Source: Alphaproteobacteria bacterium
GTDB taxonomy: Bacteria; Pseudomonadota; Alphaproteobacteria; CAAHEQ01; UBA3637
Direction of reading: 5' to 3'
Assembly: GCA_051885475.1 (NCBI GenBank)
Contig: JBJEXE010000025.1
Location: forward strand, 1-44,361
Length of the DNA stretch: 44,361 bases
A program made the position numbers and the translations under genes. Below are positions 11,934 through 38,829 of the stretch, piece by piece (the first letter of the stretch is position 1; the number at the start of each line of letters is the position of its first letter). A model generated the notes under the pieces. It made no database searches and was not told the origin of the DNA. It saw only the letters and a program-made list of their open reading frames with translations.

Positions 11934-13586
11934 ATGCTGACACATTTGGCCGTTCAGAATTTTGTTTTAATCAATAAACTGGATTTGTCATTTGACAGGG
12001 CTTTAAGTGTTTTTACCGGTGAAACAGGGGCTGGAAAATCCATTTTATTGGATGCCCTTTCCTTGGTTTTAGGGGCCCGCGGAGAAGCACGTTTTGTCCG
12101 TAAAGGCGAAAAGCAAGCGGTTATTTCGGCCGCCTTCCATTTAAATAAAAATCATCCCGTCCGTGAGATATTGGAAGAACAAGGGCTGACAACCGAAGAA
12201 GAATTGATTTTACGGCGCACCCTGTCATCCGACGGAAAAAGCAAAGCCTTTATCAACGATCAACCTGTGGGCTTGGCTTTATTAAAAACAATCGGGGAAT
12301 TATTGGTTGAAATTCACGGACAATTTGCCACACACAGTCTGTTAAATCCCATAACACACAAAACGACTTTGGATAATTACGGGCATTTGGAAAAAGAAGT
12401 GAAAGCCGTTCAAAAAGCTTGGCATCATTGGCAAGAGCGTAAAAAAGAACGCCTGGAATTAGAAGAAAATTTAAGCCGACAAATGGAAGAGGAATCTTAT
12501 CTGAAAGAGGCTGTGGATGAGCTGAATAAATTGAACCCCAAAACGGGTGAAGAAGCGTATTTAACAGAGCGCCGCAGCTTTTTAATGAATGCCGAAAAGA
12601 TGGGTGAAAATTTAAAAAATGTTCAAACTTTAACGGATGAAGAAGAACGAGGCGTTCTTGCCCTGATAAGGCGTTTAAAGTTTTATTTGGAGCAAGCCGA
12701 ACGGTTAAATGAGAAGGAGATAAGTCCTTTATTGGAACAAATGGAGGGAGCCGAAAATGCTTTGACGGAAGTTTCCGAAAAAGTAGAAAGCTTATTGGCA
12801 GAGATGGGGGATGAAAATGAGCTGATCCAAATTGACGACCGTTTATTTGCCCTGCGTGATGTGGCCCGTAAGCATCACGTTGTTTTAGATGAATTACCCG
12901 CTCTTACAGAAAAATTTGAAAAACAATTACATCAAATTGTGCATGCCGAAGATGAAAAAGCACGCTTAATGAGGGCTGAAGAAGAAGCCAAGGGAATTTA
13001 TTTTGAAGAAGCCAAAAAGCTGACTGAGGCCCGCCAAAAGGCAGCGCAAAAATTAGAAAAAGAAATTTTAAGAGAGCTGCCGGATTTGAAGTTGGAAAAA
13101 GCGCGTTTTACCGTAGAAATAAAAGAGGCCGAACCCGCCGAAGACGGCGTCAATCAAATCACCTTTTTGGTGGCCGCAAATAAAGGAACAGATTTAATGC
13201 CCATTCATAAATGTGCCTCAGGCGGTGAATTAGCACGCATTATGTTGGCTTTGAAGGTCAATTTAAATGAAGAAAATCAAACCCTGATTTTTGATGAAAT
13301 TGATACGGGCATTTCAGGGGCAACGGCTTCAGCCGTAGGAAAACGTTTGGCCCGTTTGGGGGAAAACCATCAAACTTTGGTGATTACCCATTCTCCACAA
13401 GTGGCTGCCTGCGGGAAGCACCATTATCGTGTTTCAAAAGAAGAAGGAGAAAAGACTCCCTTTACCTGTGTAAGAAAACTAACGCCGACTGAACGCGTGG
13501 AAGAAATTGCAAGATTATTATCCGGTGCACATATTACAGAGGCTGCCCGAGCAACCGCCAAAGAATTATTAAATACAGGATTTTAA
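11934..13586 (+). CDS. recN: DNA repair protein RecN
   Basis: N-terminal Walker A GETGAGKSILLDAL, long coiled-coil middle, C-terminal SGGELARIMLAL signature and FDEIDTGISG Walker B. Confidence 0.92.
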   Translation: MLTHLAVQNFVLINKLDLSFDRALSVFTGETGAGKSILLDALSLVLGARGEARFVRKGEKQAVISAAFHLNKNHPVREILEEQGLTTEEELILRRTLSSDGKSKAFINDQPVGLALLKTIGELLVEIHGQFATHSLLNPITHKTTLDNYGHLEKEVKAVQKAWHHWQERKKERLELEENLSRQMEEESYLKEAVDELNKLNPKTGEEAYLTERRSFLMNAEKMGENLKNVQTLTDEEERGVLALIRRLKFYLEQAERLNEKEISPLLEQMEGAENALTEVSEKVESLLAEMGDENELIQIDDRLFALRDVARKHHVVLDELPALTEKFEKQLHQIVHAEDEKARLMRAEEEAKGIYFEEAKKLTEARQKAAQKLEKEILRELPDLKLEKARFTVEIKEAEPAEDGVNQITFLVAANKGTDLMPIHKCASGGELARIMLALKVNLNEENQTLIFDEIDTGISGATASAVGKRLARLGENHQTLVITHSPQVAACGKHHYRVSKEEGEKTPFTCVRKLTPTERVEEIARLLSGAHITEAARATAKELLNTGF

Positions 13587-27812: not shown

Positions 27813-28595
27813 ATGGATTCATTATGGAATAAAGCATCTTTGCAAATTTATAAAGCATTGAACGGGCAAGTCCGTTTAGTGGGGGGATGTATTCGCGATT
27901 ATTTGTTGCGCAAACCCATGCACGACCGTGATATGGCGACCCCTTTGACACCAGATCAGGTGGAAGAAGCCCTGACCAAAGCAGGAATTGATTTTATTTC
28001 CATCGGAAAAAAATACGGCACCATTACGGCCCTTATTCAAGAAGAGCCCTATGAAATCACAACGCTACGTAAAGAAGAAAAGCACAACGGGCGTTATGCC
28101 GAAATGACATGGACGACTTCGTATAAGACAGATGCTTTACGTCGGGACTTTACCATCAATGCCCTGTCAGCAGATGTAAAAAATAAAATTTTTGATTATA
28201 CAACGGGGCGCAGTGATTTGGCGCAAGGATTGGTGCGTTTTATTGGCGACCCGGATAAACGCATTCAGGAAGATTATTTGCGCATTTTACGGTATTTTCG
28301 TTTTTGGTCGGCCATTTCATCTTTGGATTTGGATACGGCTGTTTTACAGGCCTGTAAGCGCCATAAAAAGGGGCTGGAGATTTTATCCAGCGAACGGTTG
28401 CAAGAAGAATTATTTCGCCTGGCCTGCACGCCCAGAGCCGAAGAAGCCTTTGTCGCAATGAAAAAGGCAGATTTACTGACACCCAAAATGTTAGGCCTTG
28501 ACTTTTCCAAAAAACAAAGGCAAAAATTAAACCAACTGAAAAAAGAATCTTTGTTGAAAAAAATCGGCTTCACAGCCTTTAAGGGGGAAAAATGA
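27813..28595 (+). CDS. Short class II tRNA nucleotidyltransferase / poly(A) polymerase family protein (CCA-adding-like)
   Basis: GGCIRDYLL, DRDMAT, RRDFTINA and EDYLRILRYFRF motifs. Only about 260 aa from the MDSLWNK start, so the usual C-terminal body/tail region is largely missing. Confidence 0.75.
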   Translation: MDSLWNKASLQIYKALNGQVRLVGGCIRDYLLRKPMHDRDMATPLTPDQVEEALTKAGIDFISIGKKYGTITALIQEEPYEITTLRKEEKHNGRYAEMTWTTSYKTDALRRDFTINALSADVKNKIFDYTTGRSDLAQGLVRFIGDPDKRIQEDYLRILRYFRFWSAISSLDLDTAVLQACKRHKKGLEILSSERLQEELFRLACTPRAEEAFVAMKKADLLTPKMLGLDFSKKQRQKLNQLKKESLLKKIGFTAFKGEK

Positions 28596-29137
28596 AAAAA
28601 AATTTCAATGAACACAGAGTTTCTTATACCAATCAAAATGAATCCGGGCGCACCATGTTGGAAATGTTGGGCGTGTTGGCCATTATGGGCATTATTACCT
28701 ATGGTGCCATTGCCGGCATCAATTATGGGATGAGCTCATATAAAATCAACCAAACCTACGCCGAAGTTCAAGATATTATTCAAGGGATTGAAGACCTGTA
28801 TTCTTGGAGTAAAGGATACCCCACAAGGGATGATTTGATGACAGCAGCCTGTGCGAATGCTATTTTTACAAACAGCGATTCATGCTCAACTGGAGAAAAT
28901 AGAACAGTCAGAGGAGCATTCGGCGACATGTGGGTTGAAGGAGCTGAGTGCCAGGGGGGAGGAAGAAACTCGTGTGCCAACTTTACAATCCACATTCCCA
29001 TTACGGATTCAAACGATTGCACGCGCTTGGCACAAATGGATTGGAAAGCCAACAGCATTGAATGCGTGAAGTGCGATGGCGAGCGGTGCGAATGTAATGA
29101 CAGGGTCCAAACAGATCTTTGTTTCAGTCCAATGTAA
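28592..29137 (+). CDS. Type IV pilin-like protein with atypical prepilin signal and Cys-rich C-terminal domain
   Basis: MKKNFNEHRVSYTNQNESG|RTMLEMLGVLAIMGIITYGAIAGI has Gly at -1, Glu at +5 and a ~20-aa hydrophobic helix. The C-terminal half has 12 Cys. ATGA overlap with the cca-like gene. Paralog of the 32509 gene. Confidence 0.7.
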   Translation: MKKNFNEHRVSYTNQNESGRTMLEMLGVLAIMGIITYGAIAGINYGMSSYKINQTYAEVQDIIQGIEDLYSWSKGYPTRDDLMTAACANAIFTNSDSCSTGENRTVRGAFGDMWVEGAECQGGGRNSCANFTIHIPITDSNDCTRLAQMDWKANSIECVKCDGERCECNDRVQTDLCFSPM

Positions 29138-32179: not shown

Positions 32180-32256
32180 GCGCTTGTAGCTCAGCTGGAT
32201 AGAGTGTCGCCCTCCGAAGGCGAAGGTCGTGAGTTCGAATCTCGCCAAGCGCGCCA
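32180..32256 (+). tRNA. tRNA-Arg (anticodon CCG), CCA end encoded
   Basis: Hand-folded cloverleaf: acceptor GCGCTTG/CAAGCGC, D-arm GCTCAGCTGGATAGAGT, anticodon stem TCGCC/GGCGA with loop CTCCGAA, variable AGGTC, T-arm GTGAG-TTCGAAT-CTCGC, discriminator G, then CCA. 77 nt. Confidence 0.93.
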
Positions 32257-32353: not shown

Positions 32354-32458
32354 TCGGACATAAACAATCCGTATGCAACAAAAAACCGCTCGTCAGGGCG
32401 GATGACCGCCGAATAAATTGAATAGGCGATTTTGCTTTGTTGCACATTGTTTACGTCC
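32354..32458 (+). promoter_or_regulatory. Long imperfect hairpin in the 5' leader (possible riboregulator, attenuator or palindromic element)
   Basis: CGGACATAAACAAT..TGCAACAAA (32354..32381) pairs with TTTGTTGCA.CATTGTTTACGTCCG (32435..32458), about 22 bp with one mismatch and one bulge. The enclosed 53 nt carry mutually exclusive CCGC/GCGG, GGCGG/CCGCC and CGCC/GGCG pairings. Confidence 0.4.
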
Positions 32459-32459
32459 G

Positions 32460-32484
32460 TCCACTTGAAATAAGTGGCATTTTT
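32460..32484 (+). terminator. Weak terminator-like hairpin plus T-run just upstream of the pilin-lectin SD
   Basis: CCACTT-gaaat-AAGTGG followed by caTTTTTT. Only a 6-bp stem, so weak. It lies between the long leader hairpin and the GGAAGGGA SD. Confidence 0.25.
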
Positions 32485-32508
32485 TATTGAAAAGGAAGGG
32501 ATGTAAAA

Positions 32509-33693
32509 ATGAAAAAACAGAATTTAAAAAAACAAACTGGCGTTTCGCCCTTGATGGGAAAGTCGGTTGGGAATAAGGATATAAATGCTGCTGGATGCCC
32601 GATCAGGTCGGGCATGACAGAGTACTATGAATCCGGCCGGAGTATGGTTGAAATGCTGGGCGTGCTGGCGATTATGGGGGTGCTCTCCGTTGGTGGAGTC
32701 GCAATGTATACAACCGCGATGAATAAACACCGCGCGAACGAAATCTTGAATGAAGCCTCCAAACGGGCCACCATAGTGGCAGGACAACTTTTAAGCAATC
32801 CCGAAGCAAAGACAATGTCTTTGGCACAATTCGGAAATAATACTGTGGCAGGGGCAACCTTTGGTGAAGAGGCAACCATTTCTGATAACAACATTACTTT
32901 AACTTTATCGGATGTGGATGAGGCTATCTGTAGCCAAATGAAAGCCGCTTTGGGCGACAGCACCATTATGGCCGTGGACGATATTTGCGGCCAAATTACT
33001 TTTAATGCGGATATGAGCAGAGGTGTAGATGCCAACGGTGGGAATGGGGATAATAATGCCCCATGTACAGAAACACCAACGGGATGCCAAGTATGTATGA
33101 ATGGTGAACTTGTGGATTCTGATGATAAGTGCCCCACTGATTCAGTTTGTGTGGATGGAGTGTGTAGCGATCCTTTAACAGGTAATGGCTGCGCCAAAAA
33201 CAGCGACTGTGAAGAAGGATACTTCTGCGATTTTAAGGGCAAAGTAAATTGTGAAAAGGGTCCGAAGGGTAAAAATGGAACCTGTACCAATAGAGAATCA
33301 TTTACAAGATCCCCCGATTTAGCTGGATTTGTGTGGGGAGCGTCCACGGATTGGTTTAGTGCCAAGAATTTTTGTTTGGCATTAAATAAACGGATGGCCT
33401 CTATTTCTGATTTTAACTGCCCTTATACAGTTGAAGAATATAGAACATCGGATGTTGAATTCCCAGGGGGATATTGCTGTAAAACAAAGCAGGATAGCAT
33501 CAATGAGCAATGTGGTGATAATCAGAATGATAAGCTAGCAGAAATAATGAAAACTGTTTCAGGGGGATATTTTTGGACGAAAGACCTTACAAAAAGATCT
33601 TGTATAGCTTTCAATATGTTGGGGAATAGTGTCTATTACAACTACCGTGATGCTAACCCCAGCTATGGTGCCTACTATGCGTTGTGTAAGTAG
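32509..33693 (+). CDS. Pilin-like protein fused to a Cys-rich linker and a C-type-lectin/DUF1566-like C-terminal domain
   Basis: ...YYESG|RSMVEMLGVLAIMGVLSVGGVAMY class-III-type signal (Gly43, Glu48 at +5). Residues ~186-259 hold 14 Cys in EGF-like spacing. Residues ~264-394 read WGASTDWFSAKNFCLALNKRMASISDF...GGYFWTKDL..SCIAFNM....YYALCK, a CTLD-like pattern. An alternative start at ATG 32614 (MTEYYESG|) is possible. Confidence 0.75.
   Translation: MKKQNLKKQTGVSPLMGKSVGNKDINAAGCPIRSGMTEYYESGRSMVEMLGVLAIMGVLSVGGVAMYTTAMNKHRANEILNEASKRATIVAGQLLSNPEAKTMSLAQFGNNTVAGATFGEEATISDNNITLTLSDVDEAICSQMKAALGDSTIMAVDDICGQITFNADMSRGVDANGGNGDNNAPCTETPTGCQVCMNGELVDSDDKCPTDSVCVDGVCSDPLTGNGCAKNSDCEEGYFCDFKGKVNCEKGPKGKNGTCTNRESFTRSPDLAGFVWGASTDWFSAKNFCLALNKRMASISDFNCPYTVEEYRTSDVEFPGGYCCKTKQDSINEQCGDNQNDKLAEIMKTVSGGYFWTKDLTKRSCIAFNMLGNSVYYNYRDANPSYGAYYALCK
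32573..32622 (+). repeat. Copy A of a ~50-nt hairpin-containing repeat, in-frame inside the pilin-lectin leader coding region
   Basis: ATAAGGATATAAATGCTGCTGGAT-GCCCGA-tcagg-TCGGGC-ATGACAGAG. It encodes residues 22-38 (NKDINAAGCPIRSGMTE). Confidence 0.7.
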
Positions 33694-33776
33694 TCCGGCA
33701 GTTTAAGTCCGCCTAAATCTTCCGCGGCCATCGTGTCGGGGAATTTTTTGAAAATTGACTGTTTGCACTTACCACA

Positions 33777-33826
33777 CAGTGTCATGCCCGACTTGACCCA
33801 GCATCCAGCAGAACTTAAAGCCTTAT
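33777..33826 (-). repeat. Copy B of the repeat, inverted relative to copy A, 84 nt downstream of the pilin-lectin stop
   Basis: The reverse complement reads ATAAGGCTTTAAGTTCTGCTGGATGCTGGGTCAAGTCGGGCATGACACTG. By my hand alignment 40 of 50 positions are identical to copy A. The internal hairpin is degenerate. Confidence 0.7.
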
Positions 33827-33830
33827 AACC

Positions 33831-33881
33831 AAAGGAATATCACGCCGCTGGATCCTCGGGTCAAGCCCGAGGATGACAGAG
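33831..33881 (+). repeat. Copy C of the repeat, head-to-head with copy B (REPIN-like doublet)
   Basis: AAAGGAATATCACGCCGCTGGAT-CCTCGGG-tcaa-GCCCGAGG-ATGACAGAG. It shares the flanks with copy A, but the stem sequence differs while pairing is kept (compensatory changes). Confidence 0.65.
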
Positions 33882-33997
33882 AGAAAAAAAGCGCCCGAGA
33901 AGGACAAAAGAAAAGAGAGGGCACAGAGGATATATAGACAAGAGAAAAAAGGGGGGGCAAAGGATAATAGGTAGGAGGTAAAAAAATTTTATACCAG

Positions 33998-36900
33998 TCA
34001 TTTACCTGTGGCGATTGCGGCCAAGCGGGCAATCATATCGCGGACGCCCGTCAAACGTTTACCCAAATCCCCCCAAGGACGCATCACAACCACTTTTTGA
34101 TCCGGACGGATTTTCATGGTGCCCACTTGGCTTTGGATATAGTCAATCAATCCGGCGGGATTCGGGAAAGTGTTTTGATAAAAGCTGATGGTCGCGCCCT
34201 TATCCCCTGCATCCACACGCTCAATATGTGCTTGTTTGGCCAGCAGTTTCAGTTCCAATGTTAAAAACAAGTTTTCTGTTTCCTGGGGGTAAAGGCCAAA
34301 ACGGTCCTTGAGTTCTTCCCGCATCGCATTGATTTCATTTAATGTGGTGAGTTCACTCAAACGGCGGTATAAATCCATACGCACCCCCAAATCAGGGATA
34401 TATTTATCCGAAATCAAAACGGGCAGCCCCACCTGAATTTGCGGGGACCAATCTTCCTGAAGCGGTTTTTCGCCCGCTTTTTGTTGACGCAGATGACCCA
34501 CTGCCTCCTTTAACATTTTTTGATAAAGGGCTACCCCAACTTCACGGATATGGCCCGATTGTTCTTGGCCCAGCAAGTTCCCTGCCCCGCGGATATCCAA
34601 ATCGTGGCTGGCTAACATAAAGCCGGCCCCTAAACTATCCAATTTTTGCATCACTTCTAAACGCTTACGAGCATTATCAGACAGGCTTCCCGTTGTCGTT
34701 AAGTAAGCATAGGCCTTTTTCTTGGACCGACCCACGCGTCCCCGCAACTGATAAAGTCCGGCCAAACCAAACATATCCGCCCGATAAATCACAATCGTAT
34801 TCACAGCCGGAATATCCAAGCCCGATTCCACAATACTGGTTGCCAGCAAAATATCATAGTGCTTGACCATAAAAGCTGACATAATTTTTTCCAGCTCCGA
34901 CGGCGCCATTTGACCGTGGGCTTTCACAATTTTAAGGTCAGGCAAAAGTGCATGCAATTTATCATAAACTTCGTCCATATCCGAAATACGCGGCACCACC
35001 ACAAAACTTTGACCTGCGCGGAAATGTTCCCGTAAAATTGCTTCTTTTATCACCACCGGATCAAAGGGCATCACATAGGTTTTAACGGCCAATCTGTCCA
35101 CCGGAGGGGTGGCGATAATAGAAAGCTCCCTCACCCCCGACAATGACAGTTGCAACGTGCGGGGAATGGGGGTCGCCGTCAAAGTCAAAACGTGAACGCC
35201 GGCCTTTAATTCCTTTAAACGTTCTTTGTGTGCAACACCAAAGTGTTGTTCTTCATCTATAATCACCAATCCCAAATTTTTAAAGCGAATGTTTTTATTC
35301 AAAAGAGCGTGAGTCCCGACAACAATATCTATTCCGCCCGCTTCAAGCCCTTCTTTGGTGCGTTTGGTATCCGCCGAATTGACCAGCCGGGAAAGAGAGC
35401 CAATCCGAACAGGGAACCCCTTAAAACGCTTTGCAAAATTTTCAGCGTGTTGGCGAGCCAAAAGCGTTGTCGGCGCAACCATCGCCACCTGCATCCCATT
35501 CATAACGGCCAAAAAAGCTGCCCGCATGGCTATTTCCGTTTTACCGAATCCCACATCCCCACACACCAAACGGTCCATCGGCTGGCCCTTGGCCAAATCC
35601 GTTTCAATTTCCGCCATCGTTTTCAGTTGATCTTCTGTTTCCACATAAGGAAAACCAGCACAAAATTCCTGATAAAAACCATGCGGCGCCAAAAGCTTGG
35701 GCATTTTATTGACCGCACGTTCAGAAGCAATGCCTATCAATTTATCAGCCATGACCAAAAGGTCTTTCTTGACCTTTTCCTTACGACCAGCGAAGGAGGA
35801 ACTGCCAAGTTTATCCAGTGCCACCTCTGAAGAACCATAGCGCGACAAAACATCGGCGTTTTCCACCGGCACAAAAAGTTTGGCGTTATCCGCATATTCC
35901 AGACAAAGGCAATCATGCGGAGCCCCTGCCAAAGTCAACGCCTGCAACCCCATAAAACGCCCAATGCCGTGTGTTTGATGAACAACCAAATCCCCCGCCG
36001 AAAGCGTAGAAATATCCCCAATAAAATCTTGACTGCGGCGACGCTTGGGCGCCGATTGCATCCTTTCCCCAAACATATCCGTTTCACTCAGGATTAAAAA
36101 ATCATCGGTTTGAAAGCCTGATTCAAAAGGGGCAACAATTAAACTGGGGGCACGTTTCAAAGCCTCAGCCCAAGTATTGGCCCACTTCAAAGCAACTCCT
36201 TTTTCCTTTAAAAGAGCCGAAAGACGTTGACCGGCTCCTTCCGTAAAGACACTGACAATAACAGGTTTGACGCCCGACGAAATAAAATCGGCCACAGCTT
36301 CAAAAATATCCTGCTTTTGTTGAATACGTACATCCATAAAATCATGGCCAGCACGACCACCTTGGTCAAGTGTTTTTTCCTGATAAAACGGGGTCAGCTG
36401 AACCGTATCAAATTGGGCCAGCAAGTTTTCCGTTTCTTTTGGGGACAAAAACATCAACGATGGAGCAATGGGATAATAGGCACCGTTCGGGTCCAATTTT
36501 TCCCGAAGAGCTTGTTGACGCGCTTCAAAATATTCTTGGATTTGTTCAGCGCGAGAGGTGATGGCTTCTTGGACCGATGGCGCCAAAAACACCCGTGTGT
36601 CATCCAAAAGGACATCCCCAAGCGTCAACATCTTATCATAAAAAAGCGGCAAAAAATGCTCCAGCCCCGAGATAAATTGTCCCGTGGAAACAGCCTGATA
36701 AAAAGCATCTTCCGAACCCGCTTTTAATAAATCACGATAGCGCGAACGAAATAATGTTTGAGTTTCCGGCGTCAGCTGAAACAACCGAACCGGACGCAAA
36801 ACAATTTCACCAATATCCCCGGTTGTGCGCTGCGTGGCTGGGTTGAAAAGCTTCGTAGATTCCAGCTCATCATCAAAAAAATCCAACCGCACAGGGCTTG

Positions 36901-37390
36901 TAAAACCGGCCGGATAAATATCCACAATTTCACCCCGAACGGCAAATTCGCCAGGGGCAGCCACCACATCCGTGGATTGATAACCGTTTTGGCTTAAAAA
37001 ATGTATAAGGCGTGTCATAGAAACAGATTTACCCACCGTTAAAGCCAAAGTATTATTCGTAATTGCCTCCAAAGGAGGAAGGCGTTGCATAAACGCCGAA
37101 ACGGTTGTTAAAACAATTTCATTTTTAGAAAGCGTAGGCAGTTTTGTCAAAGTGGCAATTTGTTCCCCGACAATATCCGTTGACGGAGAAATACGATCAT
37201 AAGGCACCGTATCCCAGTTGGGATAAGAAAATACCTGAACTTTGGGACAAATCAACGCCAACGTTTTTTCCATAAAATCCAATTGTTTTTCATTGGCGGC
37301 AATGTATAAAATGCCCCCTTGCTTGACCTCCCGGGACAAAATAAAGGGCTCAAACCCAAAAGGAACAGAGCTGTAAATTTTCTTTGTCAT
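33998..37390 (-). CDS. mfd: Transcription-repair coupling factor
   Basis: 1130 aa with a UvrB-homology N-terminus, an RNAP-interaction region, superfamily-2 helicase motifs (GDVGFGKTE, DEEQHFG, TATPIPRT, QLRGRVGRS) and a TRG motif. Confidence 0.95.
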   Translation of the reverse strand: MTKKIYSSVPFGFEPFILSREVKQGGILYIAANEKQLDFMEKTLALICPKVQVFSYPNWDTVPYDRISPSTDIVGEQIATLTKLPTLSKNEIVLTTVSAFMQRLPPLEAITNNTLALTVGKSVSMTRLIHFLSQNGYQSTDVVAAPGEFAVRGEIVDIYPAGFTSPVRLDFFDDELESTKLFNPATQRTTGDIGEIVLRPVRLFQLTPETQTLFRSRYRDLLKAGSEDAFYQAVSTGQFISGLEHFLPLFYDKMLTLGDVLLDDTRVFLAPSVQEAITSRAEQIQEYFEARQQALREKLDPNGAYYPIAPSLMFLSPKETENLLAQFDTVQLTPFYQEKTLDQGGRAGHDFMDVRIQQKQDIFEAVADFISSGVKPVIVSVFTEGAGQRLSALLKEKGVALKWANTWAEALKRAPSLIVAPFESGFQTDDFLILSETDMFGERMQSAPKRRRSQDFIGDISTLSAGDLVVHQTHGIGRFMGLQALTLAGAPHDCLCLEYADNAKLFVPVENADVLSRYGSSEVALDKLGSSSFAGRKEKVKKDLLVMADKLIGIASERAVNKMPKLLAPHGFYQEFCAGFPYVETEDQLKTMAEIETDLAKGQPMDRLVCGDVGFGKTEIAMRAAFLAVMNGMQVAMVAPTTLLARQHAENFAKRFKGFPVRIGSLSRLVNSADTKRTKEGLEAGGIDIVVGTHALLNKNIRFKNLGLVIIDEEQHFGVAHKERLKELKAGVHVLTLTATPIPRTLQLSLSGVRELSIIATPPVDRLAVKTYVMPFDPVVIKEAILREHFRAGQSFVVVPRISDMDEVYDKLHALLPDLKIVKAHGQMAPSELEKIMSAFMVKHYDILLATSIVESGLDIPAVNTIVIYRADMFGLAGLYQLRGRVGRSKKKAYAYLTTTGSLSDNARKRLEVMQKLDSLGAGFMLASHDLDIRGAGNLLGQEQSGHIREVGVALYQKMLKEAVGHLRQQKAGEKPLQEDWSPQIQVGLPVLISDKYIPDLGVRMDLYRRLSELTTLNEINAMREELKDRFGLYPQETENLFLTLELKLLAKQAHIERVDAGDKGATISFYQNTFPNPAGLIDYIQSQVGTMKIRPDQKVVVMRPWGDLGKRLTGVRDMIARLAAIATGK

Positions 37391-37494: not shown

Positions 37495-38829
37495 ATGTTC
37501 AATAAACCCATTTTACCCAATTTTTTAGGTGGCAATAAACTTCAGACGCCAGCATCAACTGTGCCACCAGCGCGTCCGCCAATGAGGCCCACGCCCAGTA
37601 TGGAAACTCAAGAAACACCAAAAGATGCGGTCCAAGCAGAGCCTCTGCCTACAAAAGAGGAAAGTGTCGCCCCCGTGGCAAGCACCCCTGTTATGCCCCC
37701 CAAAAAGAAAGAAGAAGTTGTTTCTGAGGGGACAACTCCCGTTACAAACGTCCCCCCAAAAGCGGAAACGACAGCCCCTTCGGCAACTGCAACGGTCACG
37801 GCCACGCCAGAAAAAAAACGTGTCTTTTCCAATCAGCCTGATCAACCAACAGATGCTGATGGCGTCGTCAGAGGGCCCAACTTGCACGACACGCGTTTTG
37901 CGGATATTTGGTTTACCCCCGAAAATACCGCCTATGTGCGTGATGTACGCACACGTTTTGCATTGACCCCCATTGAAACGCCGGATTTACCGGATTTTCG
38001 TCAGGCTTTGGAACAAGGCTTTACTGGCGCTTCCAGCTATGCCATTAAATTTGCTGGGGATTCCTACCGTGTGGAACGCGTGATGACCAATGACGGAGTG
38101 CAATTTAACTGCCGTAAAATGCCGACAGAAACACCCGAAATTGAATCTTTGGGGTTTGCCGCCCCCATTGTGAAACATCTGTCTTCATTGGGCCGTTCAG
38201 CCGGATTGTTGTTATTTGCCGGGCCAACAGGACAAGGAAAAACGACCTCTGCTTCGGCCATTATGAAACGCTTTTTGGACACAGACGGAGGCTTTTTATA
38301 CACCATTGAAGACCCACCAGAAATGCCCTTGGGTGGTCTTTATCACGCCAAAAACGGAGGCCTTGGATTATGTAAACAAACAGCCGTTGAAAATGATCAA
38401 TGGGGTGCCTGTCTGCGGTCGGCCTTGCGTTCCAAACCACGTTATATTTTGGTGGGGGAAATTCGGACGCCGGAAACAGCCAGTATGTGTTTGGTGGCTG
38501 CAACATCAGGCCACTTGGTGCTGTCCACCATTCACGCCAACGGTGTAGAAGATGCTTTGAATTCTTTGATTAAATATGCGGCCTCCACCGGTTTGGCGGA
38601 AAGTTTGGTATCCGATTTGTTAGCACGCGGTATTTTGGGCGTCATCTATCAACGTTTGGAAGGGGTGGAAACATTGAAGCTGCACTATAAAACGGCTTTT
38701 GCAAATCCCAACACCGCCGCCGCAGACCAAATGCGTATGGCTATCCGCGATGGCAGCGTCAATTTGGCCACCTTTATGGAAACACAAGAAACCCGTATGA
38801 ATCGCGGGATGCCGATGTTCAAGGAATAA
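37495..38829 (+). CDS. PilT/GspE-family type II/IV secretion ATPase with a long Pro/Thr/Lys-rich N-terminal extension
   Basis: Walker A GPTGQGKTT, Asp box TIEDPPE, Walker B ILVGEIRT, His box SGHLVLSTIHANG. Residues 1 to ~115 are low complexity (PPARPPMRPTP, PPKKKEE, PPKAETTAPSATATVTATPEKK). Strong AGGAGG SD. Confidence 0.8.
   Translation: MFNKPILPNFLGGNKLQTPASTVPPARPPMRPTPSMETQETPKDAVQAEPLPTKEESVAPVASTPVMPPKKKEEVVSEGTTPVTNVPPKAETTAPSATATVTATPEKKRVFSNQPDQPTDADGVVRGPNLHDTRFADIWFTPENTAYVRDVRTRFALTPIETPDLPDFRQALEQGFTGASSYAIKFAGDSYRVERVMTNDGVQFNCRKMPTETPEIESLGFAAPIVKHLSSLGRSAGLLLFAGPTGQGKTTSASAIMKRFLDTDGGFLYTIEDPPEMPLGGLYHAKNGGLGLCKQTAVENDQWGACLRSALRSKPRYILVGEIRTPETASMCLVAATSGHLVLSTIHANGVEDALNSLIKYAASTGLAESLVSDLLARGILGVIYQRLEGVETLKLHYKTAFANPNTAAADQMRMAIRDGSVNLATFMETQETRMNRGMPMFKE

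Follow-up and report, generated by a model that had tools for sequence, protein, structure and literature searches.

Hairpin repeats of probable NTS/dRS3 type at both ends of a pilin-like gene, one of them within its leader, in an uncultured gut alphaproteobacterium

The 44,361-nt contig JBJEXE010000025.1, a whole contig of an uncultured gut Alphaproteobacteria metagenome-assembled genome (MAG; assembly GCA_051885475.1), was analysed at its full length and is referred to here as the window. It was found to carry a gene for a 394-aa pilin-like protein bracketed by inverted copies of a short repeat. Copy A lies in the leader-coding part of the gene, copy B lies just past the stop codon in the opposite orientation, and copy C stands head-to-head with B, this B-C doublet occupying the gap in which the pilin gene and mfd, transcribed towards each other, both end. 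It seems likely that the three are members of the repeat family of the Neisseria Transformation Sequence (NTS) and dRS3, collectively the Ssn-related motif (SRM). The gene and its repeats comprise the following features.

32509..33693, plus strand: pilin-like gene (open reading frame, ORF), 394 aa, with a class-III (prepilin) signal
32509-32637, plus strand: leader, 43 aa, with the cleavage motif ESG↓RSMVEML at 32629-32655
32536..32625, plus strand: very probable in-frame insertion of about 90 nt between MKKQNLKKQ and YESG↓RSM, with copy A at its right end
32558..32619, plus strand: left arm of the long inverted repeat, consisting of the spacer motif ATAAGG.T.TAA.T.CTGC and copy A
32573-32622, plus strand: copy A, read from the sequence, ending in ATGACA
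32587..32623, plus strand: core of copy A, CTGGAT, then ATGCCCGA / TCAGG / TCGGGCAT, then GACAG, with the hairpin at 32595-32615
33776..33812, minus strand: core of copy B, with a decayed stem GCTGGG / TCGGGC containing 2 mismatches
33777-33826, minus strand: copy B, read from the sequence, ending in ATGACA
33780..33841, minus strand: right arm of the long inverted repeat, consisting of copy B and the spacer
33781..33877, no strand: doublet B-C, GTCAT..ATCCAG, a 41-nt spacer and CTGGAT..ATGAC, head-to-head
33831-33881, plus strand: copy C, read from the sequence, ending in ATGACA
33844..33882, plus strand: core of copy C, CTGGAT, then CCTCGGG / TCAAG / CCCGAGG, then ATGACAG

Among the 726 homologs of the pilin-like protein, GRSMVEMLGVLA is invariant; uncultured Alphaproteobacteria MAGs carry them under the name 'type II secretion system protein' or 'Tfp pilus assembly protein'. 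Its C-terminal part is Cys-rich, Pfam returned only weak N_methyl and DUF7107 matches, and its 90% cluster has a single member, the window's own sequence. The cleavage site lies between G43 and R44 (32635-32640), where the motif continues as ESG↓RSMVEMLGVLA, and the Shine-Dalgarno sequence AGGAAGGG (32493-32500) is found 8 nt 5' of the ATG at 32509.

Direct reading of the sequence confirmed the coordinates and orientations given for A, B and C in an initial annotation made from the sequence alone, together with the ATGACA at the end of each copy. The 40 of 50 identical positions counted there between A and the reverse-complemented B were confirmed as well, and the match was found to extend to arms of 62 nt with 77% identity, returned by a repeat finder as the longest inverted repeat of the window. 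The arms share exact blocks of 11 and 13 nt and none longer than 13 nt, and a blastn search of the whole window with the A region recovered B at E = 1e-9. The ATG of copy A (32614-32616) is in frame with the pilin gene and forms its codon 36.

Folded as DNA, copy A reaches -10.8 kcal/mol (z -3.3) and copy C -11.9 kcal/mol (z -3.8), both with a hairpin of the 8-9 bp class, and the z values of the two hairpins over both strands range from about -3.3 to -4.2. The stems differ in sequence, being ATGCCCGA/TCGGGCAT in A and ATCCTCGGG/CCCGAGGAT in C, with complementarity kept. The earlier description of the copies as structured thus holds for A and C, but not for B, which, with two mismatches in its stem, is on its own no more stable than shuffled sequences (z +0.4). 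The head-to-head arrangement of B and C was borne out, and jointly the two form one long hairpin of -20.8 kcal/mol (z -4.8). With a covariance model of the repeat (R1), a full-scoring scan of 32400-34000 gave exactly three copies, namely C (43.6 bits, E = 9e-13), A (40.7 bits, E = 7e-12) and B (30.6 bits, E = 1e-8), and neither sequence search nor the covariance model detected further copies elsewhere in the window.

The NTS has the sequence CGTCATTCCCGCGMAVGCGGGAATCYRG and contains the old dRS3 repeat ATTCCC-N8-GGGAAT, while a variant of it (NTSvar) is CGTCATACTCGGGNNNNNCCCGAGTATC (PMC11893778, Nat Commun 2025;16:2388). Its hairpins are bound and cut, only as single-stranded DNA (ssDNA), by the small single-domain GIY-YIG nuclease SsnA (cd10448), and ssnA genes are typically flanked by repeats (PMC11893778). 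NTS cluster beside genes for surface proteins, with just 2% of them intragenic, a locus flanked in the NTS-gene-NTS layout is transformed less, and genomes rich in SRM, defined by the search pattern HGTCWYN(0-2)YYVSBRHN(0-5)WNVSBRGN(0-2)RNCYNB, are enriched among symbionts, including Rickettsia, Wolbachia, Neisseria and Sphingomonas (PMC11893778).

In the window, the reverse complement of CTGGAT-hairpin-ATGACA is the SRM frame, and TGTCAT...ATCCAG is present in all three copies, with the conserved non-palindromic flanks that orient such a unit, GTCAT 5' and ATCC(A/G)G 3'. The published SRM orientation falls on the minus strand for A and C and on the plus strand for B (TGTCATGCCCGACTTGACCCAGCATCCAG). 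At 33848-33878 on the minus strand, copy C agrees with the SRM pattern at every position, and it is 3 substitutions away from the Neisseria NTSvar. Related sequences were collected by scanning GTDB, at one genome per species, with the pilin N-terminus; at least 563 stretches were confirmed, and the best 79 of them (L002-L080, 1.15 Mb), from human, ruminant and rabbit gut Alphaproteobacteria MAGs, were used, about 1.2 Mb being searched in all. Exact SRM matches in this 1.2 Mb number 11, and 4 were obtained from the reversed controls. One related locus (L056, 2149-2176) carries the Neisseria NTS with 1 mismatch, which is the tolerance used in PMC11893778, and six exact dRS3 sites occur in the related loci.

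The likeness to the Neisseria repeats consists in the asymmetric GTCAT-hairpin-ATCCAG frame, in the unit of about 28-31 nt, in the clustering by surface or host-interaction genes with a repeat-gene-repeat layout, and in a small GIY-YIG gene flanked by repeats, here in a related MAG. The differences are that the host of the window is an uncultured gut alphaproteobacterium, that the stems (GCCCGA, CCTCGGG) belong to other subfamilies, that the first base is T instead of C, and that the window and many paralogs carry repeats inside the prepilin leader frame. Rfam, at gathering and at permissive thresholds, gave no match at the repeats, the only alignment returned being one to RsmY at chance level, and a literature search on the translated repeat peptides gave no match.

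The family is well represented in the related loci. An exact search for TGGAT-hairpin-ATGAC yielded 43 clean copies in at least five stem subfamilies (TTCCCGC/GCGGGAA, CTYCGGG/CCCGARG, TTCTGAA/TTCAGAA, TTCCGGA/TCCGGAA and GCCCGA/TCGGGC). Anchor pairs numbered 102, against 6 in reversed-sequence controls, and those with at least 5 Watson-Crick pairs 28 against 0. Across 36 aligned copies TGGAT and ATGAC never vary; 95.5% of the stem cells of this alignment are paired, with double changes at 7 of 9 pairs, a figure that describes the family and is no proof of structure, as the alignment was chosen for hairpins and is therefore biased.

With R1, 74 copies were found at E<0.01 in the 1.2 Mb, and 48 of them (65%) lie in pilin genes or within 400 nt of one. 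They comprise 24 copies inside pilin leader frames (16 in gene orientation and 8 opposite, the latter each the left half of a doublet), 18 up to 400 nt past a pilin stop and 6 within 400 nt upstream of a pilin gene; the other 26 are elsewhere. Leaders make up about 1% of the sequence, and the concentration of copies in them is striking despite the pilin-biased choice of loci. The pilin-like family is itself much expanded, with 109 genes carrying the cleavage motif in the 79 loci and up to 4 in tandem (L008, 16402-17832), and its C-terminal domains are diverse and Cys-rich.

Copies are mostly arranged as head-to-head doublets, GTCAT..ATCCAG and CTGGAT..ATGAC separated by a semi-conserved spacer, an architecture that recurs in L004, L008, L011, L032, L042, L056, L064 and L066. 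Doublet spacing is constant at 85 nt in one species (L004, L008, L011, L032), and the spacer motif found beside A and B (CCTTATAA/ATAAGG) recurs in some doublets of other MAGs (L064, L044). The two hairpins of one doublet usually come from different stem subfamilies, and many paralogs have repeats at both ends (e.g. L004, L008, L020, L032). Intergenic clusters of the repeat give rise to spurious ORFs of a kind known from many Proteobacteria (VIPAKAGIQ, WIPAFAGMT, LDSRFHGNDK, LDLRVKPEDD, CHSRESGNP), and those at L056 1527-2385 and L064 1985-2314 are called by ORF finders as 'proteins' of 70-180 aa, which brings false hypothetical proteins into databases. Contig ends were observed inside repeat-bearing leaders, just after the conserved 5'-untranslated region (UTR) RNA described below (L012 1-298, L010 7931-8218, L013 1-329, L069 1-192), and a masked N run adjoins a repeat at L006 1331-1368; either the repeats fragment assemblies or the loci are heterogeneous.

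The position of copy A within the leader was deduced from comparison with relatives. The leader of 43 aa contrasts with one of 19 aa in the paralog at 28592-29137, a difference pointed out in the initial annotation and confirmed from the ORFs, and homologs without the repeat have leaders of 10-11 aa, as in MKNKNKLECG↓RSM (L001/L002) and MLNKKKKLESG↓RSM (L057). As L001/L002 and the window have the conserved 5' UTR, the Shine-Dalgarno sequence and the start codon in common, the start at 32509 appears homologous and about 90 nt inserted in-frame. From the UTR end to the cleavage-site codon there are 38-71 nt in genes without the repeat (55 in L001) and 130-195 nt in those with a leader repeat (152 in the window). 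Taken jointly, the identity of the repeat and the insertion of copy A, in-frame and with about 90 nt, into the leader-coding region can be held with high confidence.

Copy A is translated as AGCPIRSGMT, a peptide shared with homologs encoded in other MAGs. Of the 16 closest of these homologs, most carry this peptide just before the cleavage site, or else frame-shifted or stem-variant forms of it, among them AGCWVKSGMT (the copy B sequence; P0008, P0016, P0021), GFRIRSGMT and WIPGTSPRMT (copy-C type); P0002, P0004 and P0012 have short leaders free of the repeat. Since the element is read in different frames, it is conserved at the level of nucleotide sequence and structure and not of protein. 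Every leader reading frame in the related loci is open across the repeats, though one of the three frames of the unit holds TGA, which speaks for initiation at the upstream start and for translation of the repeat. The insertion would be tolerated because the leader is removed between G43 and R44. A decayed left unit (GGCGTTTCGCCCTTGATGGGAAAGTCGG, 32539-32566) may also be contained in the insertion, a surmise drawn only from homolog leaders such as VISRLSGNP and IVVSQLMGNPAENK; R1 at full sensitivity gave no detection of it.

Further structure was seen in other leaders. Those of L001 (3021-3185), L010 (4963), L065 (293), L050 (188) and L006 (169) have another repeat-derived segment (...SAGRGSILPLKHKGSQRGFEQNPSYTFPYALREGQTG↓RSM), made up of an SRM-like unit and a second hairpin (ACTCCCCTTGAAGCACAAGGGGAGT), from which it follows that the leader takes more than one repeat family. 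In L012, L013 and L020 (also L021 and L004), degenerate cleavage-site codons, ESG(Q/R)SN, stand upstream of the leader insertion and a functional E.G↓RSM downstream of it; these degenerate copies lie about 60-95 nt upstream of G↓RSM (at L012 3794, L013 2375 and L020 10007), in paralogs of one species, and reflect either duplication of a 16-nt target or a junction left by cassette recombination.

Ogata et al. are said to have described, in 2000, Rickettsia palindromic elements (RPE) inserted in-frame in protein-coding genes. The insertions seen here are alike in that a palindromic repeat is carried in-frame and translated as an extra segment where the protein tolerates change, and differ in that they focus on the cleavable leader of one large pilin family and leave the mature protein unchanged. 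Rickettsia is among the SRM-rich genera (PMC11893778).

A candidate for the cognate Ssn nuclease was recognised by its sequence in a related MAG.

12491-12769 of L012, plus strand: 93-aa single-domain GIY-YIG gene (PF01541, E 8.5e-14), directly after uvrA

Downstream of this gene (12770-12940) come four partial GTCATCC(T/C)G... repeats as well as an SRM doublet, in a MAG that carries many such doublets. The spacing of Y4, Y15 and E62 in its product matches that of the catalytic Y6, Y17 and E64 of SsnA (SsnA positions from PMC11893778). The L012 protein belongs to a very large family of GIY-YIG proteins of about 95 aa, with at least 7979 hits at E<=1e-10 and 60-70% identity across phyla, and many of its members are on contigs shorter than 2 kb. 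A sequence search of the PDB with the L012 protein gave no match, and NCBIfam gave only a weak match to a group-I-intron endonuclease.

Several observations weigh against the assignment of A, B and C to the SRM family. Neither A nor B fits the SRM pattern exactly, each departing from it at 2 stem positions, and the hairpin of B is lost. Copy A lies inside a reading frame, as do a mere 2% of NTS (PMC11893778). Within the 44 kb examined of this genome there are three copies, all at the pilin gene, and Pfam detected no GIY-YIG gene among the 40 ORFs of the window. The census loci, moreover, were picked for their pilin gene content, so that the association of the repeat with pilin genes is inflated. 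With these points set against the shared frame, the exact fit of copy C and the near-exact NTS in a related MAG, assignment to the NTS/dRS3-type SRM family is still judged the likely one.

Around the pilin gene and its repeats, the following neighbours were identified.

32369..32482, plus strand: structured 5'-UTR RNA of the pilin gene (covariance model R2, 67.3 bits, E 1e-16), outside the repeats
33720..33749, plus strand: probable intrinsic terminator of the pilin gene, UUCCgCGGC...GUCGgGGAA and U6, from the RNA fold of 33690-33775, 5' of copy B
33892..33906, minus strand: terminator-like hairpin and T-run 3' of mfd, from a terminator scan, abutting copy C
33998-37390, minus strand: mfd (Pfam)

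The terminators of the pilin gene and mfd thus face each other on either side of the doublet B-C; that of the pilin gene is suggested by the RNA fold, and a simple terminator scan made no call there. The gene for tRNA-Arg(CCG) (32180-32256, plus strand) is located 112 nt 5' of the UTR RNA with no obvious separate promoter between them, and tRNA genes are near pilin genes in L057, L025 and L030 as well. Immediately past mfd is a T2SSE-family (PilB/GspE-like) secretion ATPase gene (37495-38829, plus strand), the sole pilus-machinery gene in the window, in which Pfam detected no prepilin peptidase.

The UTR RNA, about 120-130 nt in length, fixes the position of the pilin gene start and ends in a terminator hairpin (32461-32477) with a T-run. 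With R2, 38 copies were counted at E<=1e-11 in the related loci (including L012 3522-3646, L021 6665-6790, L067 9787-9916 and L057 9825-9949); 31 precede pilin genes, 2 small lipoprotein genes and 1 an ankyrin-repeat gene. Covarying hairpins lie within a 9-bp long-range helix (GGnYGGAWG / CWTCCRnCC) whose 3' strand overlaps the 5' arm of the intrinsic terminator, helix and terminator being mutually exclusive; an upstream copy of this 3' strand can compete for the same partner. In the modelled structure, the RNA looks like an attenuator or riboswitch in its logic. Pairing reaches 95.5%, with double changes at 17 of 22 pairs, values that none of 500 shuffles attained, and slid controls were 26-44% paired. 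No family of Rfam 15 matches it at gathering or permissive thresholds. The UTR RNA is well supported and apparently undescribed, and may merit more attention than the repeats.

This RNA bears on another explanation of copy A, namely that its hairpin is a cis-regulatory 5' structure acting as RNA, the true start being the repeat ATG (MTEYYESG↓RSM) and the first 35 codons untranslated. The repeat ATG is indeed in frame with the pilin in most leader copies (read as GMT or RMT before x-E-x-G↓RSM), the homolog P0012 has been called from it, and the hairpin is strong as RNA (-18.5 kcal/mol), while the B-type variant pairs better when G-U wobbles, which count in RNA only, are admitted. However, the ATG at 32509 is preceded by a good Shine-Dalgarno sequence and corresponds by homology to the start codon of relatives that lack the insertion, frames from this upstream ATG are open across every leader copy, and the repeat ATG sits at the stem foot with no good Shine-Dalgarno sequence. 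Copies of the unit in either orientation, past stop codons and terminators and in intergenic clusters show, moreover, that it is no pilin-specific RNA signal, and a separate conserved UTR RNA is already present 5' of the upstream start. A pilin-specific 5' regulatory RNA was rejected on account of the occurrence of the unit in both orientations, after stops and in clusters. An RNA-level element is accordingly improbable, and the repeat ATG is a possible alternative start.

The initial annotation had offered two readings of its own. The first was a repetitive extragenic palindromic (REP) or REPIN-like mobile family, of which copy A had been inserted in-frame; the dispersed family of hairpins and doublets and the in-frame position of copy A in the leader were upheld, and the name was not, the family being that of NTS/dRS3/SRM. 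A classical REP/REPIN family would be moved by a RAYT (Y1 HUH transposase) and be unrelated to Ssn nucleases. Such a family would account for short GC-rich palindromes with a conserved asymmetric tag, for inverted doublets that fold as a long hairpin in REPIN-like manner and for BIME-like intergenic clusters. REP, BIME and REPIN elements (Nunvar 2010, PMC2817692; Ton-Hoang 2012, PMC3333891; both cited in PMC11893778) share with the present repeats the extragenic palindromes, inverted doublets and mosaic clusters, frequent between convergent genes, and are probably handled as single-stranded hairpins. The sequence frame, on the other hand, is that of NTS/SRM, with a near-exact Neisseria NTS in related MAGs, the hairpins of a doublet are usually of different stem subfamilies, unlike those of typical REPINs, and the only repeat-flanked small nuclease gene found is of the GIY-YIG type. 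The RAYT gene that had been proposed as a thing to look for was not found by tblastn with E. coli RayT against the window and 80 related loci (1.2 Mb), where the best E was 2.7 with a distant query and partial genomes. A RAYT-driven REP family is consequently very improbable.

Equally little weight is given to the second reading, a phase switch in which an invertase supplied in trans would act at A and B, flip about 1.16 kb (32620-33780) and cut off the pilin body from promoter, UTR and the start of the leader. Inversion switches are classically found at genes for pilins and adhesins, examples being those of Moraxella Piv, the R64 shufflon with Rci and E. coli fimS. As in those systems, inverted repeats bracket a pilin segment and one of them is in the 5' coding region: the A/B arms fit closely around the gene body, the one within the leader and the other right behind the stop, and have exact blocks of 11 and 13 nt in common. 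Neisseria dRS3 is, in addition, the target of a phage recombinase (PMC11893778). Against a switch stands the membership of the arms in a dispersed family whose copies flank many paralogs on either side and occur at other places too, and since these repeats come as doublets, inverted (and direct) pairs arise automatically. The arms are just 77% identical and B is decayed. The flipped junction would code only for a nonsense peptide of 36 aa (MTLCGKCKQ...HNA, then a stop), no alternative pilin end or promoter arrangement is apparent, and, unlike in the known switches, neither a dedicated recombinase nor an alternative coding end was found in the window; the 40 ORFs contain no recombinase, transposase or invertase domain by Pfam and represent housekeeping functions only, in agreement with the absence of a nearby recombinase already remarked upon. 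Lastly, 39 instances of the conserved UTR in related genomes include 31 in the 'on' state with a pilin gene, 3 with other genes and none 'off', the other 5 being at a contig end inside the leader or weak matches.

A purely local duplication, with no family and no function, would agree with the confinement of the three copies to the pilin gene within the window, but is refuted by the dozens of copies in related genomes, by those in the leaders of homologs from other MAGs and by the exact SRM fit of copy C, and is given virtually no credence.

For the NTS/dRS3-type repeats favoured here, a role can be proposed by analogy. The pilin gene has a unit at either end, the two pointing in opposite directions, as in the 'SRM-gene-SRM' layout of Neisseria surface-protein genes, and the upstream one, very probably inserted in-frame in the cleavable leader, has lengthened this leader from about 10-19 aa to 43 aa. 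The ATG of this repeat (32614) might serve as a fallback start (MTEYYESG↓R), rescuing expression if the upstream frame is broken. The hairpins would act as ssDNA, as in the Neisseria SsnA/NTS pair, and a small GIY-YIG nuclease would bind them and cut next to them. Where a fast-evolving surface-protein gene is flanked in this way, such cutting would limit or shape its homologous recombination with incoming or exposed ssDNA, and the nuclease-repeat pair could possibly also spread the repeats. That an Ssn-type mechanism of this kind operates in this organism is plausible, though the chances are put somewhat below even.

A bolder extension, considered unlikely, is that the SRM doublets at the leader and after the stop are the borders of exchangeable pilin 'cassettes', with Ssn-type ssDNA cleavage promoting, or insulating against, recombination among the more than 100 paralogous pilins or with incoming DNA. 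It is hinted at by the degenerate 'ESG RS' duplicates in several paralogs and by the several contigs that break inside such leaders. If true, it would amount to an antigenic or adhesin variation system of gut Alphaproteobacteria, with the leader as a safe docking site.

The assignment has practical consequences for annotation, as long 'leaders' and spurious ORFs (AGCPIRSGMT, WIPAFAGMT, LDSRFRGND, DPRVKPEDD...) are translated repeats and not real protein features, and the assemblies of such MAGs break at repeats. A repeat that had been unexplained is now placed, in all likelihood, in a family described in 2025, whose members are targets of sequence-specific single-strand DNA nucleases and in Neisseria flank variable genes for surface proteins, and the SRM picture would be extended to uncultured gut and rumen Alphaproteobacteria. 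Two features go beyond the published SRM description: the recurrent in-frame embedding of the repeat in prepilin leaders and its strong concentration at the ends of an expanded pilin family of gut Alphaproteobacteria. The hypothesis that Ssn nucleases and their repeats control recombination at surface genes would thereby become testable in a second, unrelated lineage.

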